From a virus (lineage: Duplodnaviria > Heunggongvirae > Uroviricota > Caudoviricetes), in the IMG/VR virus record IMGVR_UViG_2925891887_000005: 50,264 nucleotides of DNA; one strand, written 5' to 3'. The number at the start of each line of letters is the position of its first letter. Position 1 is the first letter of the stretch. The position numbers and the translations under genes are program-made. Below the pieces are notes generated by a model, which searched no databases, was not told the DNA's origin, and saw nothing but the letters and a program-made list of their open reading frames with translations. Positions 1 to 49,892 of this stretch are shown piece by piece.

Positions 1-1749
1 ATGACAGTGGCAAATTATAATTCTCTTGTCCAGAAAACTTTCTGCGAAAATGCAATTCGTTCCGTTGTCATGATTGATGACGATTTTCTGACGTATTCTG
101 AATCAATCAGGGCGTTGAATAACGAAGTTGATTTAGACTACAACAAAATTGACTCATCTAAACGAGCCGCTACTCTTGAGAGCTTTTTTCAATCTAAAAA
201 TATGATTTGTGATGTTGACAATGGTTCTGTTAATTTCGATGTGGATCGGATTAGAAAATCAGATCTTATTATTGTAGATTATCATCTTGATAATAATGCA
301 CCTGATAAAACACTTAAACTATTACAAGATTTGAAAGACTCCGATCATTTAAATATGATTGTAATATATACTAGAGAGAATTTAGAAACGGTTTGGATGC
401 AGATATCATCGACTCTCAAAGGTGCTCTGGATATCAACAGCTTGATCATTGACTACGATAATGAAGATGTCCAAAGTTATTGGGAAGACGTTGTATTACC
501 GAACTTAAATGATAATGGTAATAAAGCTCTCACAAGAGATGAAACAATAGCCTATATTAAAGACAGTAAGCCTTGTAGAAGAATTAAAAGATTAATACAT
601 GATGATGCTGTGTTGGAGGATCAAAAGGATAAAAACTTCATTGCAAAAATGATTGCAGAATATGCTGTGTCTAGAAATGCAATTATTTCTAGCAACACAT
701 CTGGCAATGTCATTCGGGGTGATGAAAGCGGAGTAAAATGGATTCAATGTGGTAATATCTTTGTCTCCCTATTTCATAAGGTTCAAGATGATCATGAAAA
801 CGATGGAGATAGGATTTGGCAAACTCTCAATGATTCTCTCATTGAATGGAAACCATCTTATTATCAGTTAATAAAATCTGAAATTCAGAATGCAATCGAA
901 GCTGAGGCTTTATCTTTTGTAAATCATTTGGCTAACGATCATTACGGTCAAGCTGCGTGGTTAAATGAGATATTAAAATCAGACTCGCCAGATATTAGAT
1001 GTAGAAATATTGACTTTGTATTTGGTAATTTATCAGAAGAGCTTTATCAAAGACTTAAAAATAATAATACGCTGGATGAATTTATCAAAAGTGTTTTTGA
1101 TAGCTATTCAAATGAATACGCTAACAGCGGAGTTGCTGCATTGCTCCAATATTGCTCTTCAAAAATGGATCTGCCATCAAATAATGATACTTATCACGAA
1201 ATGTATCATGCTTTAAATATGAATTTGTCTTCAAAGAATTTTGAAGATGGTCATATTTCTACTGGCACTATTTTCTTTGATACAGAGTCGAACAAATGGT
1301 ATTTATGTGTATCTGCGGCATGTGATTTGGTTCCTACTCAGGGTAACGACCCTCACCATGTAAGATTAAGTCCGCACAGGCTCATTAAAGTTCTGGAGCT
1401 TTTTAACGCCAGTCAGAGTAAAGCATTGCCATTTGCTGAACATTCGAAATATATATATGTAATGCATAAAAATCAAAGAAAATATCTCTCTATTTTCGAA
1501 GGGGATAAAACGCTTCCTGTTGTTGATTATATGGTGGTGTTGAATCATGGAACAACAGTTGATGGCGAAGAAAAAAATATTATTTCTGCCGTGTTTTTAA
1601 GTAATATGGATGGCAACGTGCAAAATGTTCCTGTCCGACTCAAACTTAAATCTCAACTGAGAACTGGTTATGCAGAAAGATATCAGGCTATAGCGTCTCA
1701 GTATAGCTCAAGGATTGGTGTGGATTATGTATCAATGATGCTACCATAA
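1..1749 (+). CDS. Hypothetical 582-aa protein with a CheY-like receiver (REC)-like N-terminus and a large uncharacterised C-terminal region
   Basis: Long ORF starting with ATG exactly at window position 1, so upstream context is unseen. N-terminal pattern VVMIDDDF ... DLIIVDYHLDNN ... MIVIYTRE fits the beta1 acidic pair, beta3 Asp and beta4 Thr of receiver domains. Visibly AT-rich compared with the phage core. Confidence 0.6.
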   Translation: MTVANYNSLVQKTFCENAIRSVVMIDDDFLTYSESIRALNNEVDLDYNKIDSSKRAATLESFFQSKNMICDVDNGSVNFDVDRIRKSDLIIVDYHLDNNAPDKTLKLLQDLKDSDHLNMIVIYTRENLETVWMQISSTLKGALDINSLIIDYDNEDVQSYWEDVVLPNLNDNGNKALTRDETIAYIKDSKPCRRIKRLIHDDAVLEDQKDKNFIAKMIAEYAVSRNAIISSNTSGNVIRGDESGVKWIQCGNIFVSLFHKVQDDHENDGDRIWQTLNDSLIEWKPSYYQLIKSEIQNAIEAEALSFVNHLANDHYGQAAWLNEILKSDSPDIRCRNIDFVFGNLSEELYQRLKNNNTLDEFIKSVFDSYSNEYANSGVAALLQYCSSKMDLPSNNDTYHEMYHALNMNLSSKNFEDGHISTGTIFFDTESNKWYLCVSAACDLVPTQGNDPHHVRLSPHRLIKVLELFNASQSKALPFAEHSKYIYVMHKNQRKYLSIFEGDKTLPVVDYMVVLNHGTTVDGEEKNIISAVFLSNMDGNVQNVPVRLKLKSQLRTGYAERYQAIASQYSSRIGVDYVSMMLP

Positions 1750-1820
1750 TTATTATATTTTAGGCGTGGTGATTTTTTTTCGCCATGCCTATTTTATATT
1801 TATCATCACAATGATGTTGT

Positions 1821-2237
1821 TTATTTTTGTTTAAGTCTTCTAAGCTTCATGCATTCTAATGAGAATAATAATAGAGTTGTGCTGTATATAAAGCCAGAGT
1901 TAGTTAATAACTTTAAATTTAATGCTTCAGGATTTTCACTGAGAAAGTGAAAGGCATAAACTAAGTATACAGCTAAAGTAGCCGTTCCAATTGTTGGTCC
2001 AATATCGCCTTGATCATGAGGTTCAAGGTTTACATTGAACTTGAAGATTAGCCATTCAAATCCCCAAGTAAAAAAAACAACTAATATCATGGCTGCGAAT
2101 AATTTCGCGATGTTATCTGCTGATGGATTCATCAGAACAGATTGTTTCTGAAAAAATTCACAAAGTGAGAGTCCGAAAAAAATAAAAAAAAGTGGTCTGG
2201 AACTAAATTTTTCAAAAACTTTGAATAGGGTTTCCAT
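1821..2237 (-). CDS. Small integral membrane protein (about 4 predicted TM helices), function unknown
   Basis: 138-aa ORF with four hydrophobic stretches (LFFIFFGLSL, AAMILVVFFTWGFEWLIF, TIGTATLAVYLVYAFHFL, GFIYSTTLLLFSL). AT-rich. Convergent with the 1-1749 ORF and directly downstream of the P4-like integrase. Confidence 0.5.
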   Translation of the reverse strand: METLFKVFEKFSSRPLFFIFFGLSLCEFFQKQSVLMNPSADNIAKLFAAMILVVFFTWGFEWLIFKFNVNLEPHDQGDIGPTIGTATLAVYLVYAFHFLSENPEALNLKLLTNSGFIYSTTLLLFSLECMKLRRLKQK

Positions 2238-2275
2238 TTTCTTTACCTTCAGGATTATATTAGCTATTCTGATAC

Positions 2276-3505
2276 TTAGGCTACCAGAGCATTTGATCTT
2301 TGAGCTTGAACGTAATCACTCCACCATTGCATCAAACTCTGTCGCTCTATCAGATATTCTGCACGATTGTATGCTGCGATAATTTCATCTTTTTTCGAGT
2401 GGGCAAGCGCTGCCTCAAGAACTTCAGCTCTGAATTTACCAGACTCCTCTGCCGCTGTTCGTGCAATAGAACGCATACCGTGAGCTACAAGCTCGCCTCC
2501 GAACCCCATTCGGATGATAGCTGCGTTGGCTGTTTGTTCATGCATATGATTAAGAGGCGCTTTTATGCTGGGGAAAACCCATTCTCTATGCCCACTTATT
2601 GATTTCATTAATTCAAGGATGCGCAAAGCTTCTTTACTCAAAGGAACTTTGTGAAGCTTTTTCATTTTCATGAAATCAGCAGGAATGTTCCAAATGCTGT
2701 TGGTTGTATCAATATCAGACCACCTTGCGCGAACGGCTTCACCCGGACGAACCCATGTCAACAATTGCCATTCAATTAGCATACGTGTTTCCAACCGGAT
2801 TGACGCATTCGTCAAAGATTCCATAAACCTTGGCAATTCGCTTGGGGGAAGGGCAGGCATATTTTGCTTTTTTGGTTTACTGAATCTTTGACCAAGGTTG
2901 TCAGCCGGGTTGAACTCAATAAGTTCTTCAGTAGCTGCCCACCGGAAGATTTCATTCAGACGTGAAATGATACGGCGTAGAGTTTCCAATACGCCTCGTT
3001 GCTCAATAGGATCAAGGTGTTGTTTTAAGAGCTTAGGTCGGATCTCATTGATAGGGACATTACCCAGACCGGGAAAGACATTTCTCTCTAAGCTGCGCCA
3101 GATGTCTGCTGCATGGTCTTGTGAGATACCTGATGTCTTTACCTTCTCATCTAACCATTTCCGCGCTACGGCTTGGAGAGTGTGCTCAGTAGCACTCTTT
3201 AATGCCTTCGCCTTATCGTTGTTATGGATTTGGGGATCAACACCATTTGCCAGAAAGGAGAGATATTCATCACGTAAGGCTCTGGCTCTTGCAAGGGTAA
3301 GGTGAGGATATGTCCCAAGGCTCATTTTGGTTCTTTTCTTGCTCACTGGTACTGCATACCTGAAATACCAATTTTTCTTGCCTCCTTTCGCCAAAGGAGC
3401 GATTCGTAGAATCAGACCATCACCGTCAAACAAGTTGATTTCTTTATCGGCTGGCTTGGTACTTTTGATTTCAGTGTCAGTGAGCTTCTTAGCGATTTTT
3501 GCCAT
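2276..3505 (-). CDS. int: P4-family tyrosine integrase (N-terminal DUF4102-type arm domain)
   Basis: N-terminus KKLTDTEIKSTKPADKEINLFDGDGLILRIAP...WYFRY is the signature of CP4-57/P4-type integrases; C-terminal catalytic region present. Start chosen at internal MAKIAKK (the track ORF extends to 3547). Lies beside the ssrA 3'-end remnant. Confidence 0.85.
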   Translation of the reverse strand: MAKIAKKLTDTEIKSTKPADKEINLFDGDGLILRIAPLAKGGKKNWYFRYAVPVSKKRTKMSLGTYPHLTLARARALRDEYLSFLANGVDPQIHNNDKAKALKSATEHTLQAVARKWLDEKVKTSGISQDHAADIWRSLERNVFPGLGNVPINEIRPKLLKQHLDPIEQRGVLETLRRIISRLNEIFRWAATEELIEFNPADNLGQRFSKPKKQNMPALPPSELPRFMESLTNASIRLETRMLIEWQLLTWVRPGEAVRARWSDIDTTNSIWNIPADFMKMKKLHKVPLSKEALRILELMKSISGHREWVFPSIKAPLNHMHEQTANAAIIRMGFGGELVAHGMRSIARTAAEESGKFRAEVLEAALAHSKKDEIIAAYNRAEYLIERQSLMQWWSDYVQAQRSNALVA

Positions 3506-3670
3506 TTTGGGACCCTCGGTTTTTGGACCCTTCTTAGTGGGTCCCATTCAGGGTGCCATAACTCGTAGTTCTCAGCAATTCTCACTGGACGACAATAGAC
3601 GTAAAAAAGCCCGCAGAGCTTGTGCTGTGTGGGCTTAGTAGACTTCATTGAACTTCAAACAACTAAAAAG

Positions 3671-3700
3671 TGGTGGAGCTGGCGGGAGTTGAACCCGCGT
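3671..3700. repeat. 30-bp direct repeat of the ssrA 3' end (attachment-site core; left prophage boundary)
   Basis: tggtggagctggcgggagttgaacccgcgt at 3671-3700 is identical to 49863-49892, the 3' terminus of intact ssrA; flanking sequence diverges on both sides. Confidence 0.85.
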
Positions 3701-3841: not shown

Positions 3842-4765
3842 ATGGAACTGTTGATTTCCCCAAAAAGATTGTGCCTTTATAATGATTCTGATCGCCGTGT
3901 TACAGCTAAGTTTTTGAACTCAGTTGATAACACCCTTGCGAGAGCATCTGGACAAGTGGTTATAGACTTTTCGACAGTAGAATATGCAGGTGCTGCAGCT
4001 AGCGTAAGGTTGTTTGCTATCATCAGTAGGGCTTATTTTATGGCATTCGGCACAAGTAGTCTTCGATTTATTTGGCCGAAAAAAGAAAATAATCCGTATG
4101 GGCATCGATATATTGTTGGGACGGGGTTATCGATTGCTCTAATGGCAAATACAGTTGATAAATTAGATGTTCTTACTAAGGAACGCAGGTACTTTCAGTC
4201 TGCTGTGGAACCGTATGAACATTGGGCTAAAACGATGGAATTTATTGATTCAAAAGCAATTCTCACATTTGAGCAATATCTTTTGGTCTCCTCAGCCCTT
4301 AGTGAGGCAATGCTGAATGTTTCATATCATGCATATGAACATCCAGACTTTGCTGGTGCTACAGAGCATATGCAAGGGAAACGATGGTGGCAGAGTTGTT
4401 GGTACAACCCTGACACAGACAAGGTTGTCTTTATTATTTATGATCTTGGGCTTGGCATACATAAATCATTTACTTCAGCCTCTCCGTTGTTTACTGGGTA
4501 TGACGACGTGACATCTGTGTCAACAGCCCTGACAGGAGGACAGTCCAGATATGTTAACGCTGGACGTGGTAATGGTTCTGAGGATATAAAGAGACCTATA
4601 GGGTCTGGCTGTGCGAATTCAGAATCACTTTTGGTGTTCACAGGGAATGTTAAGTACAGCTATAATTCAAGAAATGAGGTTCCCAAATGCGAGTGGATAC
4701 CTGAGTACATGCCGGGAACATTGATTGAATGGTCATTAGTTCCGAGGAGAGGAGAAGATGGTTAA
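3842..4765 (+). CDS. GHKL-type (histidine-kinase-like) ATPase-domain protein, possibly with an N-terminal STAS-like segment
   Basis: N-box-like SEAMLNVSYHAYEH, G1-like IIYDLGLGI and G2-like GRGNGS...IGSG motifs in the C-terminal half. N-terminal VVIDFSTVEYAGAAASVRLF resembles STAS-like folds. GAGG ribosome-binding site 8 nt upstream of the ATG. Confidence 0.6.
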   Translation: MELLISPKRLCLYNDSDRRVTAKFLNSVDNTLARASGQVVIDFSTVEYAGAAASVRLFAIISRAYFMAFGTSSLRFIWPKKENNPYGHRYIVGTGLSIALMANTVDKLDVLTKERRYFQSAVEPYEHWAKTMEFIDSKAILTFEQYLLVSSALSEAMLNVSYHAYEHPDFAGATEHMQGKRWWQSCWYNPDTDKVVFIIYDLGLGIHKSFTSASPLFTGYDDVTSVSTALTGGQSRYVNAGRGNGSEDIKRPIGSGCANSESLLVFTGNVKYSYNSRNEVPKCEWIPEYMPGTLIEWSLVPRRGEDG

Positions 4766-5099
4766 CATCGTCATAGCAAGGGATTTCTCAAAGATGCCAT
4801 TTGGAAGGTTCAAGTCTGACAGCCCGAACAGTGCTGAGCGTTTTCGTAAGGACTTTCTGGTTCCTGCATTAAAATCTGGTGAGCGTGAGGTTGTCGTAGA
4901 TTTTACGGGTATAAATCATGGGATTGGTTCTTCGTTTCTAGAGGAGGCCTTTGGAGGGCTTGTTAGGAAGGAAGGTGTACCTAAGGCTGACATTAAGGCA
5001 AAACTAATTATAAAAAGTGATTTGCCGTTCTATAAAGATCAAATTTTTAGATATATTGAAATGGCTAATCCAGAAAGGAAGCCTTTCCAAAGGAGTTGA
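4758..5099 (+). CDS. STAS-like (DUF4325-like) small protein, putative partner of the upstream GHKL ATPase
   Basis: 113 aa. Motif VVVDFTGINHGIGSSFLEEAFGGL matches the conserved core I recall for STAS-like/DUF4325 domains. ATG overlaps the upstream stop (translational coupling) and follows a GAGGAGAGGAG ribosome-binding site. Confidence 0.55.
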   Translation: MVNIVIARDFSKMPFGRFKSDSPNSAERFRKDFLVPALKSGEREVVVDFTGINHGIGSSFLEEAFGGLVRKEGVPKADIKAKLIIKSDLPFYKDQIFRYIEMANPERKPFQRS

Positions 5100-5100
5100 T

Positions 5101-5730
5101 TTGAACACCGTTGATATTAAGGACACCCTTGCAGGGGTGTCCACTTACGCATGGATGTTTAGTGTTGTGAGTATTATCTTAGTGTTTATTGGATGGTTTG
5201 TTACTTACAATAATTCACTGAAGATTGCTACTCGCTCTGAATCTAAATCGATTATAGATGCGATTGCTAAAATTTTAAACGAAATATCGGATTTGTCTCT
5301 GGATTACTGGGTTAATAAGTCAACACCACCAGATTCTAATCCATTTAAGAAAAAAAGTTTTAAGAACTCTAATGGATTGCATACTCAGTCGGCGAAAATA
5401 TATTTAACGGCAATTCATGGAAAAGCCATACAAATAAATAAATACATTAATCTTCTCGATGAGAGGGGGATAAAAATAACAATTTCGTATTTTTCTAATA
5501 TTATAGATGAAGCTACTATGGAATGTGAGAAATCATATTGTTTTAATAAGTCATATAGGGTTTTTCGCGCTCAGAATGTATCTAGTGCTTGTATCGATTT
5601 CATAATGCATTTATATGATTCTTTTCAAAAAAATCATCCTCCACGTAAGCCTGTATATGTATTGAAAACATTAAAACAATTGGATTGTTACTTGGATAAA
5701 TGGCATAATGAATTATGTGGGCGGCAATAA
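5101..5730 (+). CDS. Membrane-anchored protein (single N-terminal TM helix plus about 170-aa soluble domain), function unknown
   Basis: Track ORF is 5017-5730. AAGGAG sits 5 nt before an in-frame TTG at 5101, immediately after the upstream stop; alternative starts are ATG 5017 or ATG 5155. TM segment YAWMFSVVSIILVFIGWFVTY. Very AT-rich. Confidence 0.5.
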   Translation: MNTVDIKDTLAGVSTYAWMFSVVSIILVFIGWFVTYNNSLKIATRSESKSIIDAIAKILNEISDLSLDYWVNKSTPPDSNPFKKKSFKNSNGLHTQSAKIYLTAIHGKAIQINKYINLLDERGIKITISYFSNIIDEATMECEKSYCFNKSYRVFRAQNVSSACIDFIMHLYDSFQKNHPPRKPVYVLKTLKQLDCYLDKWHNELCGRQ

Positions 5731-12227: not shown

Positions 12228-13060
12228 ACAGTTTAACGGCAAATAACCGTTTGTCGCAACAGCTGGTGGTCAGCGTCGCTGAACACCTGTTGTTACGGCA
12301 TGAATGCAGATTACCAAATCACCTGGCTGTAAGTAACCACAGAGAACTTTACCTGACTGTGGGGGGCGAGTTGTGCAGGAACTTAACCGCTGGTTTCGTG
12401 ACGGAAGAGGACTTTATGTTCATGTTATTCGTTGGGAGCCAGAAACACAGCGCGTTATCTATCTTCGCAAAGACTACCCGCATGAGTGCTTTAGTCCTTT
12501 GTGGAAATTCAGGCGTGATTTTATTGAGTGTGAAGGACCACCAGCACATTGATTCTGCCATTCCGGGACGTTACACTGTTCAGGCACCTTATAAAGCGGG
12601 TGCCGGGATTGGCGTCCTGGAATTGATCAAGGCGATATATGACGCGCCAGCGTCTTTTTTATCGTCCGCATTTGCTCACATCAAAGTTATGGTGGGCTGG
12701 GCGGGGGCATCGAAAGATGCGCCGGTTTCCTTGATCACCGGTTACGCCAACCCCGTTCAGTTCACCACCAGCGAAATTGGCGTTTCCGGTGGTGGAAGTA
12801 TTTCACCGATCAAGGAGGCTGCCATCATGGCTACTGTCCCAGCCCTCACTCGTCTGAATGATGAAGACTTACATAAACTCAGTTATGTAACAACAGCACT
12901 ACGTGCTCTGCGCAAGGTAACTCTTTCAGATCCGCAGGCGCATCAACTTCTGGTAGAAACCCTTCTTAACTTGCAGGCTGAACGTATTCGTTTGGCGGAT
13001 AAGGCTAATCTTCATATTCACCGTCTCCTGAATATCAGCGGAGGGCATCGTCATGCTTAA
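12224..13060 (+). CDS. Hypothetical early protein(s); coding frame ambiguous
   Basis: ATG overlaps the upstream stop (ATGA). There is an internal AAGGAGG plus ATG at 12827, and an alternative-frame GTG ORF at 12373-12552; it may be one gene or several small ones. Confidence 0.35.
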   Translation: MNSLTANNRLSQQLVVSVAEHLLLRHECRLPNHLAVSNHRELYLTVGGELCRNLTAGFVTEEDFMFMLFVGSQKHSALSIFAKTTRMSALVLCGNSGVILLSVKDHQHIDSAIPGRYTVQAPYKAGAGIGVLELIKAIYDAPASFLSSAFAHIKVMVGWAGASKDAPVSLITGYANPVQFTTSEIGVSGGGSISPIKEAAIMATVPALTRLNDEDLHKLSYVTTALRALRKVTLSDPQAHQLLVETLLNLQAERIRLADKANLHIHRLLNISGGHRHA

Positions 13061-13289
13061 TCCGTTGATCCTCAATATTCACCGTTTACTTCAGCGTAAA
13101 AAAATATCAATTCCTACAGTTGGGCAGTGGTACACCACACCTGCAGGGCATGTTCTACGTGTTAGCCTGGTTGACCGTGAATGCCAGAAGGTGATTTGTG
13201 AACCGCTTGGCCGTAATTACCGCGTCAGTATGCCGCTTATAGCCTTTCGCTCCGGAAAAAACATGAAGCATCTCGGAGGTGCAGCATGA
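13053..13289 (+). CDS. Hypothetical small early protein
   Basis: 78 aa; start overlaps the upstream stop and the stop overlaps the O-like start (ATGA), indicating translational coupling. Confidence 0.45.
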   Translation: MLNPLILNIHRLLQRKKISIPTVGQWYTTPAGHVLRVSLVDRECQKVICEPLGRNYRVSMPLIAFRSGKNMKHLGGAA

Positions 13290-14104
13290 GTATGGAGCTG
13301 ATGGTTAAAGCGATGAAAATTCGAGTGGGTAATCCATTGCGAAAACTGGTTCTGATCAAGCTGGCTGATAATGCCAGCGATCAGGGTGAGTGTTGGCCCA
13401 GCTACCAGCATATTGCTGACCAGTGCGAGATTAGCAAACGTTCTGTGATGAATCATATTGCGGCCCTTTGTGAGTCCGGGCTGGTAAAAAAAGTCACCCG
13501 GAAAGGTGAAAAAGGTAACTCAAGTAATATCTATCTCCTTCATCTTGATGGTGCAGGAGATTCACTAGGGGGTAGTGCAAATAATTCACTATCTGGTGCA
13601 GCAAATTCACCAGGTAGTGCAGGAGTTGCACCAGGGGGTAGTGCAGGAGATTCACCCAGAACCAGTCACTCTTTTGAACCAGTCAAAGAACCAGTCAATG
13701 AACCAATAGCTGTTGGTGCATCAGTTGATGAGTCCGTGCGAGTTCGTTCAAACCGACCGGAATACTCTCCGGAGTTTGAGCAGGCATGGCTGGTATATCC
13801 CAAACGTGCTGGTGGCAATTCAAAATCTGCAGCCTTCAAAGCCTGGAAAGCCCGTTTGAATGAGGGGGTAAACCCCGAAACCATGCTGGAAGGTGTGAAA
13901 CGCTACGCGGGCTGGGTATCTGCGATGGGTAACAGCGGCACACAATTTGTGAAACAGGCTGTCACGTTCTTTGGTCCGGATCGTCATTTCGAAGAATCCT
14001 GGGAAGTTCCTGCGGTATCTGCAGCCAGACGCGAGGACCCGTACTTCAAAGCCAGTTACGACAACGTGGACTACAGCCAGATCCCGGCAGGATTCAGGGG
14101 GTGA
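13286..14104 (+). CDS. Replication initiator (O-like, N-terminal HTH) with internal iterons
   Basis: N-terminal HTH replisome-organiser-like region; a Gly/Ser/Ala-rich linker is encoded by DNA direct repeats; position matches lambda O. Confidence 0.65.
   Translation: MSMELMVKAMKIRVGNPLRKLVLIKLADNASDQGECWPSYQHIADQCEISKRSVMNHIAALCESGLVKKVTRKGEKGNSSNIYLLHLDGAGDSLGGSANNSLSGAANSPGSAGVAPGGSAGDSPRTSHSFEPVKEPVNEPIAVGASVDESVRVRSNRPEYSPEFEQAWLVYPKRAGGNSKSAAFKAWKARLNEGVNPETMLEGVKRYAGWVSAMGNSGTQFVKQAVTFFGPDRHFEESWEVPAVSAARREDPYFKASYDNVDYSQIPAGFRG
13549..13705. repeat. Iteron-like direct repeats (candidate ori) inside the O-like gene
   Basis: GTGCAGGAGATTCAC occurs twice, with related GGTAGTGCA/GGTGCAGCA units between, then GAACCAGTCA repeated three times. 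Confidence 0.5.
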
Positions 14105-14595
14105 TCATGAGTCTTTTGAATGAAGTTCAGAAATACATTGAAGCCCATCCGGGGTGTACTTCCGGAGACATTGCGGATGCTTTTGCAGGTTACTCACGGC
14201 AGCGCGTTCTGCAGTCAGCAAGCAAGTTACGTCAGAGTGGTCGTGTGGCTCACCGTTGTGAAGGGGATACACGCAGACATTTCCCGCGCCTGACTGAGAG
14301 AGCGCAGGAGGCGGAACCGCAACCAGTTCGTGAAACCAGACCTGTGCGCAATTTCTATGTCGGCACTAACGATCCCCGGGTGATTTTGTGCCTGACCCGC
14401 CAGGCGGAAGAACTGGAGTCGAGGGGCTTATACCGTCGTGCTGCAACGGTGTGGATGGCGGCATTCCGTGAAAGCCACTCCCAGCCAGAGCGAAACAATT
14501 TTCTTGCGCGTCGTGAGCGGTGTTTACGGAAAAGCAGCAAGCGCGCTGCATCGGGTGAAGAGTGGTATCTGTCAGGGAATTACGTGGGGGCTTAA
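14101..14595 (+). CDS. Hypothetical early protein (winged-helix-like N-terminus)
   Basis: 164 aa, translationally coupled to flanking genes; function not assignable from sequence. Confidence 0.45.
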   Translation: MIMSLLNEVQKYIEAHPGCTSGDIADAFAGYSRQRVLQSASKLRQSGRVAHRCEGDTRRHFPRLTERAQEAEPQPVRETRPVRNFYVGTNDPRVILCLTRQAEELESRGLYRRAATVWMAAFRESHSQPERNNFLARRERCLRKSSKRAASGEEWYLSGNYVGA

Positions 14596-15248
14596 TGAGT
14601 AATAAATATTGCCAGGCGCTGGTGGAGCTGCGGAACAAACCAGCCCATGAACTGAAGGAAGTGGGCGATCAGTGGCGCACGCCGGATAACATTTTCTGGG
14701 GAATTAACACCCTGTTTGGCCCGTTTGTTCTGGATCTGTTCACTGATGGTGATAACGCCAAATGTGCCGCTTATTACACTGCGGAAGACAACGCGCTGGC
14801 GCATGACTGGTCTGAACGTCTTGCGGAGCTTAAAGGTGCTGCCTTTGGTAATCCCCCGTACAGCCGCGCCAGTCAGCATGAAGGGCAATACATCACCGGC
14901 ATGCGTTACATCATGAAGCATGCCAGTGCCATGCGTGATAAGGGCGGACGCTATGTTTTCCTGATCAAAGCTGCCACCAGCGAAGTGTGGTGGCCGGAAG
15001 ATGCAGATCATATTGCTTTTATTCGCGGGCGTATTGGTTTTGAACTGCCTGCCTGGTTTATCCCGAAGGACGAGAAGCAGGTGCCGACAGGCGCTTTCTT
15101 CGCTGGTGCTATTGCTGTTTTCGACAAGACCTGGAAGGGACCGGCAATCAGCTACATCGGGCGCGATGAACTTGAGGCATGTGGTGAGGCGTTTCTGGCG
15201 CAGGTTCGCCAGCAGGCAGAAAAACTGGTCAGGGAGATGGCGGCATGA
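14595..15248 (+). CDS. Phage Dam-like DNA N6-adenine methyltransferase
   Basis: Contains the NPPY catalytic motif (FGNPPYS); start overlaps the upstream stop (TAATG). Confidence 0.75.
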   Translation: MSNKYCQALVELRNKPAHELKEVGDQWRTPDNIFWGINTLFGPFVLDLFTDGDNAKCAAYYTAEDNALAHDWSERLAELKGAAFGNPPYSRASQHEGQYITGMRYIMKHASAMRDKGGRYVFLIKAATSEVWWPEDADHIAFIRGRIGFELPAWFIPKDEKQVPTGAFFAGAIAVFDKTWKGPAISYIGRDELEACGEAFLAQVRQQAEKLVREMAA

Positions 15249-15571
15249 CGACGTTAACTCAATGCCAGCAGCAGGTGCTGGATATGCTGATTTCTTATCA
15301 GAAAGAACGTGGCTTCCCGCCAACCAATCAGGAGGTGGCAACCATGCTGGGATACCGTTCGGTGAATGCAGCGGTGGAGCATCTTCGCGCACTGGAGAAA
15401 AAAGGCGTCATCACGATAAAGCGTGGCGTGGCCCGGGGGATAACGCTTCATACCGCGGTGAAGGACGACGACAGCGAGGCGGTCGGGATTATCCGCTCAC
15501 TGCTTGCCGGTGAGGAAAACGCAAGGCTGCGTGCAGCCCACTGGTTACATGAGAGGGGGCTGAAAGTATGA
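15245..15571 (+). CDS. LexA-N-terminal-like DNA-binding protein
   Basis: 108 aa; resembles the LexA winged-helix DNA-binding domain (GFPPTNQEVATMLGYRSVNAAVEHLRALEKKG). Confidence 0.55.
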   Translation: MTTLTQCQQQVLDMLISYQKERGFPPTNQEVATMLGYRSVNAAVEHLRALEKKGVITIKRGVARGITLHTAVKDDDSEAVGIIRSLLAGEENARLRAAHWLHERGLKV

Positions 15572-15957
15572 AGCTGATTCTGCCTTTTCCACCCAGCGTG
15601 AACACCTACTGGCGACACCCCAACAAAGGGGCATTTGCTGGTAAGAGCCTGATAAGCGCGGCGGGGCGAAAATTCCAAAGTGCGGCGTGCACAGCAATAG
15701 TTGAGCAGTTACGTCGTCTGCCGAAACCAACGTCGGCACCTGCTTCAGTGGAGATCGTGTTGTTTCCTCCGGATAACCGGATCCGCGATCTGGACAACTA
15801 TAACAAGGCGCTGTTTGACGCCCTGACCCACGCGGGTGTGTGGGAAGACGACAGCCAGGTGAAAAGAATGCTGGTGGAGTGGGGACCGGTTATCCCGGAA
15901 GGGAAGGTCGAGATCACTATCAGTAAGTACGAGAAAACGGCGGGTGCAGCCGCCTGA
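15568..15957 (+). CDS. rusA: RusA Holliday-junction resolvase
   Basis: MKLILPFPPSVNTYWRH...DLDNYNKALFDALTHAGVWEDD matches the RusA family signature. Confidence 0.85.
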   Translation: MKLILPFPPSVNTYWRHPNKGAFAGKSLISAAGRKFQSAACTAIVEQLRRLPKPTSAPASVEIVLFPPDNRIRDLDNYNKALFDALTHAGVWEDDSQVKRMLVEWGPVIPEGKVEITISKYEKTAGAAA

Positions 15958-15976
15958 TCAAGAGGAGAAACGAAGT

Positions 15977-16786
15977 ATGAATAATCTGATGGTCATTGAT
16001 GGTATTGAAGTTCGTCGTGATGCTTATGGGCGTTACAGCCTGAACGATCTGCACAGGGCAGCCGGGGGAGAACAAAAAAACCGCCCGAAATACTGGCTCT
16101 CCAATAAGCAAACCTGTGAATTGATTGAACAACTTTTCACCGAGGGTGGAATTCCGCCTCTGGAACAAAATCAACCAGTTAGCGTCATTAATGGCGGAAA
16201 TAACCAGGGGACGTATGTCTGCAAAGAACTGGTGTATGCCTATGCAATGTGGATCAGCCCGTCATTCCATCTGAAGGTGATCCGTACTTTCGACATGGTA
16301 ACCAGCGCGCCGGAAAAATTATCCGGACAGGCTGCTGACAAGATGCAGGCTGGTGTGATTCTGCTGGACTTTATGCGCCGGGAATTAAACCTGTCTAACT
16401 CTTCAGTGCTTGGTGCCTGTCAGAAACTCCAGGAGGCTGTTGGCTTACCGAATCTGGCACCGCGCTATGCCATTGATGCTCCTGCTGACGCGCCTGATGG
16501 CTCAAGCCGCCCCACGCTGTCACTGAGTGCACTGCTGAAGCAGTATGGTATCCGCCTGACAGCTAATCAGGCATATCACCAGATGGCGAAGCTGGGGATC
16601 GTTGAACAACGTGAACGATACAGCCGCACTGCGATTAACAACATCAAAAAATTCTGGTCGCTGACGGCGAAAGGCTGCATGTTCGGCAAGAACATCACCA
16701 GTCCCGCAAATCCGCGCGAGACGCAGCCGCATTTCTTCGAATCCCGGTTCCCTGAGCTGTTAAAGCTGCTCGATACCGTTCATTGA
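15977..16786 (+). CDS. KilA-N-domain protein (antirepressor-like)
   Basis: N-terminal KilA-N-like region (IDGIEVRRDAYGRYSLNDLHRAAG); AGGAGA ribosome-binding site before ATG 15977. Confidence 0.6.
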   Translation: MNNLMVIDGIEVRRDAYGRYSLNDLHRAAGGEQKNRPKYWLSNKQTCELIEQLFTEGGIPPLEQNQPVSVINGGNNQGTYVCKELVYAYAMWISPSFHLKVIRTFDMVTSAPEKLSGQAADKMQAGVILLDFMRRELNLSNSSVLGACQKLQEAVGLPNLAPRYAIDAPADAPDGSSRPTLSLSALLKQYGIRLTANQAYHQMAKLGIVEQRERYSRTAINNIKKFWSLTAKGCMFGKNITSPANPRETQPHFFESRFPELLKLLDTVH

Positions 16787-16787
16787 G

Positions 16788-17783
16788 GTGACCGTGAGAG
16801 CGCTACTGACCCCTGAAATTGCCCCGCGTATGGGGATCGTATTGTTCAGGCCAGGTTCAGAGCTGATGCCCCTGTTTATGCAGGGGCGTGTCCTGCTGGA
16901 GCCTGAGCCGGAACGTTATTCATCTTTCGCCAGTGGTGCCGTTCCGGCGGCATCACAACCGCTGGCGGATGATCCTGCCGTTCGGGCCGTGTTCCGCAAT
17001 GAGGCAGTGATTCGTCGTGCTGGTGGAGTGGAATGTCTTGAACGCTGGTTACTTCGTGAAAAAGGTTGCCAGTGGCCTCATTCCGACTGGCACAGCGAGA
17101 ACATGACCACAATGCGACACACGCCGGGCGCAATCCGTCTGTGCTGGCACTGCGATAACCAGCTGCGCGATCAGTTCACGGAACGGCTGGAATCAATGGC
17201 AACGGATAACTGTACCCGCTGGGTGTTGTCTGTTGTGCGTCGGGATCTCGGTTTTGATGACAGTCACGTTGTGACAATGCCGGAACTGTGCTGGTGGCTG
17301 ATTCGTAATGACCTGGCGGATGCCTTACCGGAAAGTGCAGCCCGTAAGGCACTGAGATTACCGAAGCCTGTTGTGCCGTCTGTCACCCGGGAAAGTGACC
17401 TTGTGCCTTCGGTTCCTGCCACCAGCATCATCCAGGATAAAGCGAAAAAGGTGCTGGCGCTGAAAGTGGATCCGGAGTCGCCGGAGTCTTTTATGTTACG
17501 CCCAAAACGTCGCCGCTGGGTTAATGAAAAGTACACGCGCTGGGTTAAGACACAGCCGTGTGCATGTTGTGGAAAGCCTGCTGATGATCCCCACCACCTG
17601 ATAGGTCACGGTCAGGGTGGAATGGGAACAAAAGCGCATGACCTTTTTGTGTTGCCTTTGTGCAGAAAGCATCACGACGAGCTGCATGCGGATACCGTGG
17701 CATTTGAAGAGAAGTATGGCTCCCAGCTGGAGCTGATATTTCGTTTTATCGATCGTGCGCTGGCAATTGGCGTGCTGGCCTGA
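16788..17783 (+). CDS. DUF968-family prophage protein (Cys/His-rich C-terminus)
   Basis: C-terminal [18 protein letters not shown]...CRKHHDELH pattern, as recalled for Rac/Qin prophage DUF968 proteins; GTG start. Confidence 0.55.
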
Positions 17784-17800
17784 TTTTGTGGAGAAAGTTG

Positions 17801-18166
17801 ATGCGTGATATTCAGATGGTTCTTGAACGTTGGGGGGCATGGGTGGCAAATAATCACGAGGATGTCACCTGGTCGTCTATTGCTGCAGGATTTAAAGGAC
17901 TAATCCCTTCAAAAGTAAAATCCCGCCCGCAATGTTGTGACGATGACGCGATGATCATTTGTGGGTGCATGGCTCGCCTGAAAAAGAACAACAGCGATTT
18001 GCACGATTTATTAGTGGATTATTATGTAGGTGGTATGACGTTTATGGCGCTTGCCCGTAAACATGGGCGTTCTGATTGCTGGGTTGGGCGTTTATTGCAA
18101 AAGGCTGAAGGTGTAGTTGATGGCATGTTAATGATGTTAGAAATTGAGCTAGAGATGGATCGTTAG
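17801..18166 (+). CDS. Q: Late-gene antiterminator Q-like protein
   Basis: Position immediately upstream of the late/lysis region; Cys-rich small protein; ATG with GGAG ribosome-binding site. Confidence 0.55.
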
Positions 18167-18208
18167 AAGACCTCTTATTGAGGGGGTAATTGAATCAGTT
18201 TAATGTGT

Positions 18209-18240
18209 GGGGAGTCGATTTATTCTCCCCATTTTATTTA
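18209..18240 (+). terminator. Terminator-like hairpin downstream of Q
   Basis: GGGGAG-loop-CTCCCC followed by ATTTTATTT. Confidence 0.45.
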
Positions 18241-18250
18241 ATTAATTTAC

Positions 18251-18697
18251 TTAAGGTTTTAATTCATCAAGACGTTGTTGGATAGTGTTTTTGCTTGCGT
18301 TGTCTGTTATAGCCATTTGTTGTACTTGCCCCATTGCCATTTGAGTTTCCATCCACATATCGGCCCACACTTTTGTATCGTTATTAACTTGAGCGATAGT
18401 AAATCTGACTTTTGATACCGGGGTTGTTGAATAGGCATTTCCGATTAACATTTGTCCAAAAACAGCAGAGCCGCCTTCCAGTTCTTTACCACATATAACA
18501 CTGCTGTTATCCGCTTTGTAAATTATCAACCCTCTACTATTGCAGTAATTCACAAGGGCATCTTTGACTTTATCTTTTGTCGTATTTTGATAAACCCCCT
18601 CAGGTTTTCCTGATTGAGTTTTCTTTATCAATGGTACGGAAGAAGTACAACCTGAAATGATAGTTGCGCTAAGTAATAGTACAGTCATTTTATTCAT
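18251..18697 (-). CDS. Lipoprotein (moron), function unknown
   Basis: Signal peptide with lipobox IISGC; AT-rich; antisense to the surrounding late operon. Confidence 0.6.
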   Translation of the reverse strand: MNKMTVLLLSATIISGCTSSVPLIKKTQSGKPEGVYQNTTKDKVKDALVNYCNSRGLIIYKADNSSVICGKELEGGSAVFGQMLIGNAYSTTPVSKVRFTIAQVNNDTKVWADMWMETQMAMGQVQQMAITDNASKNTIQQRLDELKP

Positions 18698-18943
18698 GTT
18701 TCTTATCCATTGTTAAGGGTATACCCACACAATTATTTTTATTGGAGATGAATAATCAACCGTTTACAATCGTAAAAAATCAAATATGCTGTTAAGAGTG
18801 GTTACTTCGCCACACAACTTAAACCCGCCGCTGAGCGGTTTTTTTGTACCTGTAAACTTGGTGCAGTACAGTAAACACGCTGGTGGTCGTGAATACTGAC
18901 TTTTTATCTTGCTGGCTTTTTAGACAAGAGTTATTGGTATGTC

Positions 18944-19171
18944 ATGTTAACCAGAAGGGAAAAAGACATGCTAAAACAGCAAGATATGACAGAAACCGCC
19001 GCCGCAGTCCTTCATTTCTTACCTGCTGACAAGTGGGTAACGCCACGCATGATGACGAGAACTACCGGAGTAAGCGAAGCCCGGTGCCAGTTAATACTGA
19101 CTCAGTTAGTTCTGGCGGGTCTGGCGAAGGATAACGGCGGGTACGGGAATAAATTCAGACGCTGCCAGTAA
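18944..19171 (+). CDS. Hypothetical small protein
   Basis: ORF only; weak ribosome-binding site; alternative start at 18968. Confidence 0.3.
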   Translation: MLTRREKDMLKQQDMTETAAAVLHFLPADKWVTPRMMTRTTGVSEARCQLILTQLVLAGLAKDNGGYGNKFRRCQ

Positions 19172-19321
19172 TGGCGGTTTCCTGCTGTGAAAATGGGCGG
19201 CTGGTGGGTGTTGGTAGCACCTGCCAGCCATTCGCTCATGCTTACTGGTCACAAGCGAACCACGGCCCACTGCTTTAGCGCAAAAGCAGAGTGAGCCTAC
19301 CAGAGTTACGCTTACTGATCC

Positions 19322-20374
19322 ATGAAAAATACTGTAAAAATAAACAGTGTTGATTTAATCAACGCTGATTGCCTGCATTTTATTCAGTCCCTGCCTGATG
19401 ATTCCATTGACCTGATTGTTACCGATCCGCCGTACTTCAAGGTGAAACCCAACGGCTGGGACAATCAGTGGAAAGGGGACGAAGATTACCTTAAGTGGCT
19501 GGACCACTGTCTGGCCCAGTTCTGGCGGGTGTTAAAACCTGCCGGAAGCCTTTACCTGTTCTGTGGGCATCGCCTGGCATCTGATATTGAGATCATGATG
19601 CGTGAACGTTTCAACGTGCTTAACCATATCATCTGGGCGAAGCCGTCCGGACGTTGGAATGGGTGTAATAAAGAAAGTCTGCGTGCATATTTTCCTGCCA
19701 CAGAGCGCGTTCTGTTTGCTGAACATTACCAGGGGCCATATCGTGGCAAAAGTGACGGCTATGCGGCAAAAGAAAGGGAACTCAAACAGCACATAATGGC
19801 ACCGCTGATATCGTATTTCAGGAATGCTCGTGCCGAACTGGGTATAACGGCAAAACAAATTGCCGAAGCCACAGGTAAGAAAAATATGGTTTCCCACTGG
19901 TTTGGTGCCAGTCAGTGGCAGTTGCCGAATGAGGCTGACTATCGGAAGTTACAGGCACTGTTTTCCCGTATAGCGGCAGAGAAGTTTCAGGAACAACAAC
20001 TGGAACAACCACACCACCAGCTGGTGGCAGCTTATGATTCACTGAATCGCAAATATTCTGAATTGCTGGATGAGTTTAAATCTCTCCGGCGCTATTTCTC
20101 CGTATCAGTCTCCGTGCCTTATACCGATGTCTGGATGCATAAACCCGTTCAGTTCTACCCGGGGAAACATCCGTGTGAGAAACCGGCGGATATGCTCAGG
20201 CAAATAATCAATGCCAGTAGTCGACCAGGTGATCTGGTTGCTGATTTTTTTATGGGATCCGGTTCCACAATAAAAGCAGCAATGGCGCTGGGGCGTCGGG
20301 CCTTAGGTGTTGAGCTTGAGTCAGAGCGGTTTAACCAGACAGTGAAAGAGATAAACGAGCTGGTGGGGAAATAA
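19322..20374 (+). CDS. Orphan DNA methyltransferase (DPPY motif; N6-adenine or N4-cytosine class)
   Basis: Motif IV TDPPYF near the N-terminus and AdoMet-binding FFMGSGST near the C-terminus; no adjacent endonuclease. Confidence 0.8.
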
Positions 20375-20441
20375 TCTGGTGGCCACGTCAGGTGGCCTTT
20401 TTATTTCCATTACACAGCACCCGCATCTGCGAGGTGGGGTT

Positions 20442-20657
20442 ATGAAATCCATGGATAAGTTAACAACGGGTGTCGCCTATGGCACCTCAGCAGGTAGTGC
20501 CGGGTACTGGTTTTTACAGTTGCTCGATAAAGTCACGCCCTCACAGTGGGCGGCAATAGGTGTGCTGGGTAGTCTGGTATTTGGCTTGCTGACGTATCTG
20601 ACTAACCTGTATTTCAAAATCAGAGAGGACCGTCGTAAGGCGGCACGGGGAGAGTAA
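20442..20657 (+). CDS. S: Phage-21-type class II holin (pinholin S21-like) with dual start
   Basis: [29 protein letters not shown]...[15 protein letters not shown] is near-identical to the phage 21 S holin as I recall it; the track ORF 20379 carries an N-terminal extension. Confidence 0.85.
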
Positions 20658-45118: not shown

Positions 45119-45702
45119 TGGCATTCAGAATGAGTGAACAACCACGGACCATAACAATTTATAATCTGCTGGCCGGAACTAATGAATTTATTGGTGAAGG
45201 TGATGCATATATTCCGCCTCATACAGGTCTGCCAGCAAACAGTACCGATATTGCACCACCAGATATTCCTGCTGGCTTTGTGGCTGTTTTCAACAGTGAT
45301 GAGGCATCGTGGCATCTCGTTGAAGACCATCGGGGTAAAACGGTTTATGACGTGGCTTCCGGCGACGCGTTATTTATTTCTGAACTCGGTCCGTTACCGG
45401 AAAATGTTACCTGGTTGTCGCCGGGAGGGGAGTATCAGAAGTGGAACGGCACAGCCTGGGGGAAGGATACGGAAGCAGAAAAACTGTTCCGGATCCGGGA
45501 GGCAGAAGAAACAAAAAACAGCCTGATGCAGGTAGCCAGTGAGCATATTGCGCCACTTCAGGATGCTGTAGATCTGGAAATCGCAACGGAGGAAGAAAAC
45601 TCGTTGCTGGAAGCCTGGAAGAAGTATCGGGTGTTGCTGAACCGTGTTGATACATCAACTGCACCGGATATTGAGTGGCCAGAAGAACCAGACACCGTGT
45701 AA
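45118..45702 (+). CDS. tfa: Tail fibre assembly protein Tfa
   Basis: Lambda Tfa-like; TAATG overlap with stf. Confidence 0.85.
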
Positions 45703-45771: not shown

Positions 45772-46590
<819 letters not shown>

Positions 46591-46951: not shown

Positions 46952-48385
46952 ATGTCTGAATTTGAAGTGTTGGCACAGCATCTGCTGAAGGAAGCCGAGG
47001 CGGAAGAAAAGCTGCGACAGGAAAATGATAAAAAGCTTATCGAGAAAGTGCTGGAAATCTATGATCAGAAGTATGTGGCTGAATTACTGAGAAAAGTCGG
47101 AAAAAATGAGTGGAGCCGTGAAACCATTAACCGCTGGATTAATGGCAAGTGTTTACCAAAATCGTTGACTTCAGTAGAAGAGTCTCTTCTGCGTAAGATG
47201 CTACCAGAACCACCTGCAAACCATCCGGAATATGCTTTCCGCTTCATTGACTTATTTGCTGGAATTGGAGGGATACGGAAAGGTTTTGAGGCCATTGGAG
47301 GCCAGTGTGTTTTTACCAGTGAATGGAATAAAGATGCTGTGCGTACATACAAGGCCAACTGGTTTAACGATGAACAGGTGCATAAATTCAATCTCGATAT
47401 TCGGGAAGTCACGCTGAGTGATAAAACCGATGTATTGGAAACGGATGCTTATGCATATATTGATGAGCATGTGCCGGATCATGATGTGCTTCTTGCGGGG
47501 TTCCCGTGCCAGCCATTTAGCCTTGCTGGTGTTAGTAAGAAAAACTCACTTGGTCGTGCGCATGGTTTTGAATGTGAAGCACAAGGAACACTTTTTTTTG
47601 ACGTGGCACGTATTATACGAGCAAAAAAACCGGCAATTTTTGTGCTGGAAAATGTCAAAAATCTGAAGAGCCATGATAAGGGTAAAACTTTCAAAGTCAT
47701 TATGGAGACCCTTGACGAGCTGGGCTACGAAGTTGCCGATGCTGCAGAAATGGGAAAAAACGATCCAAAGATTATCGATGGGAAGCATTTTTTGCCTCAG
47801 CATCGTGAACGCATTGTTCTGGTCGGATTTAGACGAGATCTGAATATTCACAAGGGGTTTACCTTGCGTGATATCAGTCGTTTTTATCCGGAACACCGCC
47901 CATCATTTGGTGAATTGCTGGAGCCTGTAGTCGACAGTAAATATATACTTACGCCAAAACTATGGGAGTACCTTTATAACTACGCCAAAAAGCATGCAGC
48001 CAAGGGGAATGGTTTTGGCTTTGGGTTGGTCAATCCTGAGAATAAGGAAAGCATTGCACGCACACTTTCTGCCAGATATCACAAAGACGGATCAGAAATT
48101 CTTATTGATCGTGGTTGGGATATGGCAACGGGAGAGGCTGACTTTATGAATGAGAGTAATCAGGCTCGTCGACCACGCAGGCTGACTCCCCGAGAGTGCG
48201 CACGCCTTATGGGATTTGAAAAACCTGGAGGGAAACCATTCCGTATTCCGGTTTCAGATACTCAGTCATATCGGCAGTTCGGTAACTCAGTTGTGGTGCC
48301 AGTATTTGAAGCTGTTGCCAGACTTCTGGAACCCTATATCCTCAAAGCTGTTTCTGCTGATGCTGGTAAGACTGGGCAGCCTTGA
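46952..48385 (+). CDS. dcm: C5-cytosine DNA methyltransferase, Dcm / M.EcoRII-like (CCWGG)
   Basis: [17 protein letters not shown] (motif I), GFPCQPFS (motif IV), ENV (motif VI), QFGNSV; near-identical to Dcm/M.EcoRII as recalled. Start at MSEFE with a GGAGG ribosome-binding site; the track ORF starts at 46910. Confidence 0.9.
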
Positions 48386-49862: not shown

Positions 49863-49892
49863 TGGTGGAGCTGGCGGGAGTTGAACCCGCGT
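49863..49892. repeat. attR core: 3' end of ssrA, identical to the repeat at 3671-3700
   Basis: Exact 30-bp identity with 3671-3700. Confidence 0.85.

Follow-up and report, generated by a model that had tools for sequence, protein, structure and literature searches.

The prophage described here is quite probably a standard lambdoid element of the mEp460/SfV/cdtI/1720a-02 type, which carries two orphan adenine methyltransferases that differ in timing and most likely in breadth. The window, i.e., the whole stretch of 50,264 nucleotides that was analyzed, is 100% identical to E. coli 22AR0322, and both methyltransferase ORFs match RefSeq CDSs of NZ_CP195467.1. The prophage spans 46.2 kb and is inserted in ssrA (tmRNA, 49863-50225, minus strand), flanked by a perfect 30-bp repeat, with the proximal att copy inside the 3' end of ssrA (49863-49892) and the distal copy of that 3' end at 3671-3700. 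Among the matches listed, the empty site runs through uninterrupted at 100% identity; coverage of at least 80% of the junction is seen in 967 genomes. A preliminary description had recognized the two orphans by their NPPY and DPPY motifs, one in the early operon and one between Q and S, here the holin gene essD. Translation, Pfam and the RefSeq CDSs agree on both positions and on intact catalytic motifs, and the two ORFs are family-level matches rather than chance motif hits. As had been claimed, neither gene adjoins a restriction endonuclease; the neighbors are genes for PerC-like, LexA-DNA-binding-domain, RusA, KilA-N, DUF968, Q, phrog_331 and holin proteins (Pfam, PHROGs, RefSeq).

The DPPY enzyme (19322-20374, plus strand, 350 aa) is encoded in the late operon and is matched end to end by PF01555 (N6_N4_Mtase, Pfam E = 2.7e-42). 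Its motifs follow the beta-class order, with DPPY (catalytic motif IV, 19424-19435, plus strand, aa 35-38) at the N terminus and FMGSG (the AdoMet-binding motif I, FxGxG, 20249-20263, plus strand, aa 310-314) at the C terminus. As judged from its sequence, it belongs to the M.EcoGII family of N6-adenine methyltransferases and most likely methylates adenine non-specifically. Identity is 80.5% to M.EcoGII over the full length with only 2 gaps, and 89.3%, 87.2% and 71.4% to the reconstructed ancestors Anc291, Anc289 and Anc284/SUPREM, percentages that may be off by a few residues because the M.EcoGII and ancestor references were machine-read from a supplement. The enzyme, about 20% diverged from M.EcoGII, is thus nearer to Anc291 (89%) than to M.EcoGII itself; it is also 99.4% identical to the methylase of phage cdtI. 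M.EcoGII and M.EcoGI, prophage methyltransferases of E. coli O104:H4 C227-11, are likewise lambdoid-prophage orphans of 349-350 aa with the order DPPY, target recognition domain and FxGxG, and M.EcoGII acts on adenine whatever the DNA sequence context (PMC5778455). All the reconstructed ancestors that were tested methylated both DNA and RNA (PMC11551740).

It would be very unlikely for the DPPY enzyme to be a conventional site-specific orphan, as the public annotation implies and as had been assumed in the preliminary description. NCBI names the exact protein and its cluster "site-specific DNA-methyltransferase," and a divergence of 20% from M.EcoGII could in principle alter specificity; furthermore, M.PflMI, the most distant named member of the wider cluster and the nearest named site-specific relative, does recognize a specific site (PMC11551740). 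The NCBI name, however, is a generic one. M.PflMI branches outside the ancestor nodes and is without the charged interdomain linker that, together with a helix-turn-helix-like target recognition domain, is described for the M.EcoGII family (PMC11551740). In a sequence alignment with M.EcoGII, residues 150-270 of the DPPY enzyme are gap-free, and the central region and linker as a whole align nearly without gaps. The close resemblance to Anc291 and Anc289 also argues for non-specificity: on RNA, no sequence motif was seen for M.EcoGII, Anc291 or SUPREM (PMC11551740). Methylome studies, moreover, list or describe homologs at 92-99% identity as being non-specific (PMC6602927; PMC4659465). The public label is probably wrong, and a non-specific enzyme, as this one most likely is, would therefore have no target motif to define.

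The DPPY gene is on the same strand as the surrounding late region, which runs in the order Q, a hairpin followed by seven T residues, a small ORF, the methyltransferase gene, a terminator and the holin gene, with the genes for lysis and morphogenesis next downstream of the methyltransferase gene. The antiterminator gene Q (17801-18166, plus strand; PF06530, Pfam 2.1e-51; RefSeq CDS) is separated from the late leader by a lipoprotein-like moron of phrog_3152 on the minus strand (18251-18697, in the low-GC 18-19 kb bin), near which a terminator-like hairpin is found at 18209-18228. A candidate late promoter, TTTACA-16-TATGCT (18763-18790, plus strand), is a weak consensus match (9/12). Downstream of it and upstream of the methyltransferase cassette is a tR'-like intrinsic terminator with a GC hairpin and a T7 run (18827-18846, plus strand), which folds modestly better than shuffled sequence (z = -1.65). 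The conserved small ORF of phrog_331 (18968-19171, plus strand, 67 aa) directly precedes the DPPY gene, and a terminator-like hairpin with a T-run (20381-20406, plus strand; -15.6 kcal/mol, z = -3.46) is located between the stop codon of the DPPY gene and essD, the first gene of the lysis cassette (20442-20657, plus strand; RefSeq annotation). Compared with phage 1720a-02, the late leader is conserved from about 18790 on, downstream of the shared Q gene, whereas the sequence upstream diverges; conservation thus begins only downstream of the putative -10 of the candidate promoter. At the tR'-like terminator, the flanks and the T-run are kept, whereas the central hairpin bases differ. DPPY-type genes are also located just before the lysis genes in Stx2_EH1910, Klebsiella phage NAR688 (59% identity) and Vibrio phage VHML (48%).

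By analogy with its characterized relatives, the DPPY gene is most likely silent in the lysogen and, on induction, would bring about broad methylation of progeny DNA. M.EcoGI and M.EcoGII are unexpressed in the lysogen and deleterious if constitutively expressed (PMC5778455), M.EcoMV, 99% identical to M.EcoGI, was predicted by RT-PCR to be inactive in EC958 (PMC4659465), and reviews describe M.EcoGII-type enzymes as silent in lysogens (PMC12707154) and outside phage development (PMC7736820). Under this scenario, transcription in the lysogen would stop at the tR'-like terminator, short of the DPPY gene, whereas after induction Q-modified RNA polymerase would read through and the enzyme would be made. 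It would then methylate adenines of the progeny phage DNA largely or wholly irrespective of sequence, which may blunt the many restriction systems of Types I, II and III that are sensitive to adenine methylation. Toxicity from genome-wide methylation would do no harm to this purpose, as the cell is about to lyse anyway.

Alternatively, one or both orphans might be active in the lysogen and regulate host or prophage genes epigenetically instead of protecting exported DNA, a reading that we regard as most improbable. Some phage-borne methyltransferases do reshape host expression, M.EcoGIII being an example (cited in PMC6602927). A weak promoter-like site lies inside the late region (19026-19053), and the Dam-like gene adjoins two regulator-like genes, those of the PerC-like and LexA-DNA-binding-domain proteins. 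Both methyltransferase genes, however, belong by strand and position to the operons that the prophage repressor or tR' shuts off. The harm done by constitutive M.EcoGII and the inactivity predicted by RT-PCR for one homolog speak against lysogenic activity as well, and M.EcoGI/GII homologs gave no lysogen methylome signal (PMC5778455; PMC4659465; PMC6602927). Because the M.EcoGII family is silent in lysogens and motif-free (PMC5778455; PMC4659465), a methylome of the lysogen would be expected to show no new motif, and the function of the DPPY enzyme cannot be tested in that way.

For the silent, induction-dependent enzyme that we favor, Mu Mom and the non-specific adenine methyltransferases Hia5/Hin1523 are functional analogs, which modify adenines of phage DNA broadly and whose genes are silent during lysogeny and toxic when misexpressed (PMC3299994; PMC12707154); Mom (acyltransferase fold) and Hia5 (alpha class, Dam-related) nevertheless belong to families unrelated to the DPPY enzyme (PMC3299994). 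Heavy methylation could harm infectivity, in which case the level in vivo would have to be partial. In the open-access literature, no paper was found that measures m6A in virion DNA of phages with an M.EcoGII-like gene, and no direct measurement was found of the cost of broad m6A against m6A-dependent Type IV restriction. The phrog_331 protein could act as a controller that delays or limits toxic non-specific methylation, or that steers methylation to phage DNA. A homologous ORF occupies the equivalent position in Stx2_EH1910, 1720a-02 and Klebsiella phage NAR688, and a phrog_331 member lies directly upstream of the methyltransferase gene in E. coli, Stx and Klebsiella phages, including cases in which the small proteins have no detectable pairwise similarity. 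That it is a dedicated partner of the M.EcoGII-like enzyme is an unlikely proposition at present.

The second orphan is a Dam-like N6-adenine methyltransferase of 217 aa (14595-15248, plus strand) in the rightward early operon. It is assigned by PF05869 (Dam; Pfam E = 9.7e-46, 156 bits vs. a cutoff of 28.1) and TIGR01712 (phage_N6A_met; 255.6 bits vs. a cutoff of 97.05), and its RefSeq CDS is WP_000066917.1. The translation places its NPPY catalytic motif IV at 14850-14861 (plus strand, aa 86-89). In an alignment with the Dam enzymes of VT2, T1 and HP1, NPPY(S) and an N-terminal D-x-W-x-T-P form invariant columns. These enzymes and the Dam-like protein are one Pfam/TIGRFAM family of small orphans encoded among phage early genes; the protein differs from the other three in length (217 aa against 173-237 aa), in an insert that follows NPPYS and in an extended C terminus. 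Its identity is 30% to M.EcoVT2Dam (VT2-Sakai orf32), 24% to T1 Dam and 25% to HP1 Dam. The reported target of M.EcoVT2Dam is GATC (PMC6602927). The Dam-like enzyme most probably targets GATC too, a family-level guess because it shares just 24-30% identity with the VT2, T1 and HP1 enzymes, all three taken as characterized GATC methyltransferases. No sequence-related solved structure was found for it. GATC occurs 158 times in the element against 179 expected and is not depleted, a count that says nothing about the target either way.

The Dam-like gene is one of a series of rightward early genes whose stop and start codons overlap (TAATG at 14593-14597, ATGA at 15245-15248), in the company of replication and recombination genes (a replication protein and RusA). 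From this location, the enzyme would be made earlier than the DPPY enzyme, during replication, and may methylate GATC sites, supplementing a limiting host Dam on fast-replicating phage DNA. A somewhat unlikely but credible alternative is that it has no anti-restriction role and either keeps replicating phage DNA GATC-methylated for phage-internal reasons or has a target other than GATC. With Dam already present in the host, a GATC enzyme would give little added protection in E. coli, and its low identity to GATC enzymes leaves room for another target. The replication and recombination genes around it fit such a role, and reviews see regulation of the viral cycle as a possible role of many orphan methyltransferases of phages, e.g., P1 Dmt (PMC12707154). 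On the other hand, PF05869 members are usually read as protective (e.g., bioRxiv 10.1101/2022.06.14.493971), and a P1-like role at a pac site is unlikely because the phage appears to have a lambda-type terminase. Candidate phage-internal reasons are avoidance of MutH nicking and the timing of replication, recombination or gene expression.

A third methyltransferase, Dcm-like and C5-cytosine-specific (46952-48385, plus strand; PF00145, 4.7e-78, and PF18284; NF007772, 927 bits), is convergent with an EcoRII-type restriction endonuclease (48420-49628, minus strand; EcoRII-N, 3.9e-61; EcoRII-C, 2.4e-71), and a GIY-YIG PD-T4-3 defense gene adjoins this complete pair. The EcoRII restriction-modification system is of Type IIE with the target CCWGG. 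The same endonuclease domain pair and a Dcm-type C5 methyltransferase are found here, with the difference that they are chromosomal prophage cargo near att. The preliminary description was right that the pair is real and, since the pair falls inside the att-bounded insertion, that one phage element encodes three methyltransferases. Its reading of these as layered anti-restriction self-methylation holds in part. For the DPPY enzyme's family, anti-restriction is the accepted role, short of direct demonstration (PMC5778455; PMC12707154). It is unsupported for the Dam-like enzyme, because a GATC target would duplicate host Dam. The Dcm-like enzyme is the modification half of an EcoRII cassette, and thus defense cargo of host or prophage rather than phage self-protection; in the lysogen it would serve defense or addiction.

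The two-gene methyltransferase layout is also present in phages 1720a-02, mEp460, SfV and cdtI; of 5426 complete E. coli genomes, 364 have it. In these four phages and PhiR40_1, the module has the shared order PerC-like, Dam-like, LexA-DNA-binding-domain protein, RusA, KilA-N, DUF968, Q, small ORF and DPPY methyltransferase, at 97-98% nucleotide identity to the prophage; the Dam-like proteins are 99.5-100% identical (100% for Escherichia phage PhiR40_1) and the DPPY proteins up to 99.4%. Two features set the prophage apart from these phages: the additional moron on the reverse strand, placed between Q and the late leader, and the EcoRII/Dcm and PD-T4-3 cargo block, which is absent from all phage records searched. 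The DPPY gene had also been thought to replace tRNA or toxin cargo, which is contradicted by Stx2_EH1910, where Q is followed by a small ORF, the methyltransferase gene and then the cargo (three tRNAs and stx2AB). Stx2_EH1910 has the DUF968/HNH-like gene too, although no Dam-like gene is annotated in the part of it that was examined, and 933W-like phages retain just a C-terminal remnant of the DPPY-type gene.

The literature and thousands of genome records already contain both genes, the order in which they lie and the function proposed for the family of the DPPY enzyme. As a discovery, the finding matters little, both genes being common in E. coli lambda-like prophages. If the phrog_331 protein did prove to be a partner and the Dam-like enzyme to have a target other than GATC, the two orphans would amount to a genuinely layered, regulated self-modification program. 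A prophage type this common would also be a convenient system for measuring m6A in induced phage DNA.

Both methyltransferase ORFs coincide with RefSeq CDSs and with Pfam or TIGR01712 matches, and their NPPY and DPPY catalytic motifs are present. The preliminary description overlooked the M.EcoGII-family identity of the DPPY enzyme (19322-20374, plus strand, 350 aa), which is the decisive identification. The enzyme matches PF01555 (N6_N4_Mtase) end to end (E = 2.7×10−42), with DPPY (residues 35-38) N-terminal of FMGSG (residues 310-314), the beta-class order. When compared with the M.EcoGII protein sequence given by the SUPREM paper (PMC11551740, Supplementary Table S1), it shows 80% full-length identity with two single-residue gaps (80.5% by global alignment). 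Its identity to the reconstructed ancestors is 89.3% for Anc291, 87.2% for Anc289, and 71.4% for Anc284 (SUPREM). M.EcoGII, a prophage-borne enzyme, methylates adenine irrespective of DNA context; it is unexpressed in the lysogen and deleterious under constitutive expression (PMC5778455). DNA and RNA were both substrates for every reconstructed ancestor, and RNA methylation by M.EcoGII, Anc291, and SUPREM followed no sequence motif. M.PflMI, the nearest site-specific relative named in the same paper, is more distant and has no charged linker (PMC11551740). The position of the DPPY enzyme within a clade of extant and ancestral non-site-specific members supports, but does not prove, non-specific activity. 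The DPPY enzyme is a member of the M.EcoGII family, probably non-specific and late-expressed. Its public name, “site-specific DNA-methyltransferase,” is generic, and the same label is widespread for M.EcoGII-like proteins.

The DPPY gene lies between the antiterminator gene Q (17801-18166, plus strand) and the holin gene (from 20442, plus strand). Upstream of it are a consensus-level promoter match (TTTACA-16-TATGCT, 18763-18790, plus strand), a GC hairpin with seven T (18827-18846, plus strand), and a small phrog_331 ORF (18968-19171, plus strand), and a strong terminator-like hairpin follows it (20381-20406, plus strand; z = −3.46). The leader from ~18790, with its terminator flanks and T-run, is conserved in phage 1720a-02 downstream of the same Q gene, and the hairpin centre differs there. 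The late-promoter assignment is tentative because the sequence upstream of ~18790 is not conserved in 1720a-02. We infer that expression of the DPPY enzyme is late and Q-dependent, which would agree with the reported silence of its homologues in lysogens (PMC5778455, PMC4659465, PMC6602927, PMC12707154, PMC7736820). A methylome of the lysogen, proposed earlier as a refuting test, would give a false negative. A further terminator-like hairpin (18209-18228) separates Q from a lipoprotein-like moron (18251-18697, minus strand, 148 aa; phrog_3152, no Pfam match). This moron, an insertion between Q and the late leader that phage 1720a-02 lacks at that position, falls in the 18-19 kb bin of low GC (0.38). 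It has a promoter-like site to itself and shares a bidirectional terminator-like hairpin.

An M.EcoGII-like gene just before the lysis cassette was also found in Stx2_EH1910, Klebsiella NAR688 (59% identity), and Vibrio VHML (48%). The DPPY gene had been described as taking the place of tRNA or toxin cargo. In Stx2_EH1910 the order is Q, small ORF, methyltransferase, three tRNAs, and stx2AB; the gene therefore coexists with such cargo and does not replace it. In 933W-like Stx2a phages (LC727862, JQ011318, KP682371, LC616071, LC616064), only the last ~35 codons of an M.EcoGII-like gene are left, with 66% identity, which suggests that the gene is ancestral at this position and was later partly deleted. 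The phrog_331 ORF lies directly 5′ of the M.EcoGII-like methyltransferase gene in E. coli, Stx, and Klebsiella phages (18968-19171 in the window, and 3152-3349, 12770-13000, and 2453-2683 in the phage loci L005, L006, and L009, respectively). The Klebsiella and E. coli small proteins have no BLAST-detectable similarity to each other, and both match phrog_331 at ~1×10−26. The phrog_331 protein may act specifically with the methyltransferase, as its partner or regulator.

The Dam-like enzyme (14595-15248, 217 aa) matches PF05869 “Dam” (E = 9.7×10−46) and TIGR01712 “phage N-6-adenine-methyltransferase” (255.6 bits; cutoff 97). NPPY occupies residues 86-89 (nt 14850-14861), and the N-terminal family motif D-x-W-x-T-P is conserved. 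As described previously, the gene belongs to the early operon, where rightward genes follow one another with their stop and start codons overlapping. Identity is 30% to the VT2 enzyme, 25% to HP1, and 24% to T1, and relative to these the Dam-like protein is extended at its C-terminus and carries an insertion after NPPYS. GATC is the target of the T1 and HP1 enzymes. It is also the reported target of M.EcoVT2Dam, the VT2-Sakai orf32 methyltransferase (PMC6602927), a member of the Dam-like enzyme's Pfam family. Membership in the non-specific Hia5/Hin1523 family was rejected, as Hia5 and Hin1523 are alpha-class, DPPY-type, and Dam/DpnM-related. No solved structure related by sequence to the Dam-like enzyme was found. 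A GATC target for the Dam-like enzyme is therefore a family-level guess. If it is right, the Dam-like enzyme duplicates host Dam and could bring the methylation of fast-replicating phage DNA to completion.

A link between the Dam-like enzyme and a characterised REBASE enzyme was sought. M.EcoVT2Dam shares the Pfam family at only ~30% identity, and for M.EcoGV the literature search yielded neither sequence nor locus; going by the description of prophage Phi14 in PMC6602927, its gene would probably be at the opposite prophage end. Dam-like homologues in RefSeq phage records (e.g., NC_019716, NC_003444, NC_009514, NC_004313) are named “phosphoadenosine phosphosulfate reductase,” likely a misannotation, whose source is probably phrog_33262, a 495-position family with the Dam domain as its C-terminal part. 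Elsewhere in the early operon, the ash/antirepressor region carries tandem Rfam matches above gathering score to the Hfq-binding sRNA isrK (12584-12660, plus strand) and to C4 antisense RNA of P1/P7-type immunity (12685-12772, plus strand). Two 39-nt direct repeats (13551-13589 and 13617-13655; 82% identical, 66-nt spacing) lie within the replication-protein gene (13286-14104) and may be origin iterons.

Both enzymes are orphans, as had been proposed. The neighbours of the two ORFs encode PerC-like, LexA-DNA-binding-domain, RusA, KilA-N, and DUF968 proteins, Q, the small ORF, and holin, and no restriction endonuclease is among them. DUF968/HNH and RusA were considered as a hidden restriction partner and rejected, since they are ordinary genes just upstream of Q and are also present in Stx2_EH1910, yet no Dam-like gene is annotated in the stretch of that phage examined.

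The locus of both methyltransferases is a lambdoid prophage. The window is identical to the chromosome of E. coli 22AR0322 (NZ_CP195467.1, from position 1216813), and the early-right and late-leader region of the prophage has 97-98% identity to phages PhiR40_1, PhiR55_1, mEp460, SfV, and cdtI. The last 30 nt of ssrA (tmRNA, 49863-50225, minus strand) are perfectly repeated at the distal att (3671-3700), and no third copy was found in the window even with 3 mismatches allowed. The empty site, 3200-3700 joined to 49893-50264, runs uninterrupted at 100% identity in the listed E. coli genomes, and the joined sequence is at least 80% covered in 967 genomes. Given the perfect ssrA repeat without another copy and the contiguous empty site, the 46.2-kb segment is one discrete insertion, and both orphan methyltransferases are inside it. 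A search for internal att repeats around the int-to-tail-fibre core alone found only chance 10-12-mers. Between the distal att and the prophage integrase lie three genes (3842-5730, plus strand) encoding phrog_3364, a DUF4325 STAS-like protein, and phrog_30059; none of the three matches PADLOC or occurs in phage records, and 2 kb of cargo separating att from int is unusual. At positions 1-3547 a second ssrA-associated island follows in tandem with the prophage: a P4-type integrase (2276-3547, minus strand) directly past the distal att copy, a response-receiver-domain protein (1-1749) beyond it, and an ATP-binding protein upstream of the window. This island directly adjoins ssrA in many other genomes.

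A Dcm-type methyltransferase (46952-48385) and EcoRII endonuclease (48420-49628) adjoin the ssrA-side att copy. The possibility that this cassette is a separate islet outside the prophage was excluded: with no third att copy and a precise empty-site join over 46.2 kb, it lies inside the inserted element. The claim of three methyltransferases in one prophage is thus correct for the element as integrated. Since a GIY-YIG protein gene (45772-46545, minus strand; Pfam LEM-3-like GIY-YIG), a full-length PADLOC match to the PD-T4-3 anti-phage defence model (7.6×10−140), adjoins the cassette, this prophage arm is a small defence-cargo block. The cargo block was in none of the phage records searched, so the cassette may not be packaged, and the order tail fibre, restriction-modification cassette, ssrA occurs in 114 genomes. 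A full-length IS009 Rfam match (223.7 bits; 45461-45659, plus strand) lies inside the tail fibre assembly gene, in its 3′ part.

Among 5426 complete E. coli genomes, the DPPY gene is in 1157 (coverage at least 80%) and the Dam-like gene in 1724; the 7-kb stretch with both is in 364. The exact Dam-like protein is on at least 1000 contigs and the DPPY protein on 155, and their 90%-identity clusters have 3007 and 4060 members, respectively. Both genes occur in the same order in phage 1720a-02, which Murray et al. cite for a very similar methyltransferase (PMC5778455). Nothing in the observation departs from published work. GATC and CCWGG occur in the element about as often as expected, which is uninformative, and a search of open-access papers turned up none that directly measures methylation of virion DNA in phages of this type. 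The interpretation first proposed is partly right: the genes are orphans, the methyltransferases number three, and protection of exported DNA is plausible. The Dcm-like enzyme supplies the modification activity of a complete restriction system and is therefore not a phage self-protection enzyme.
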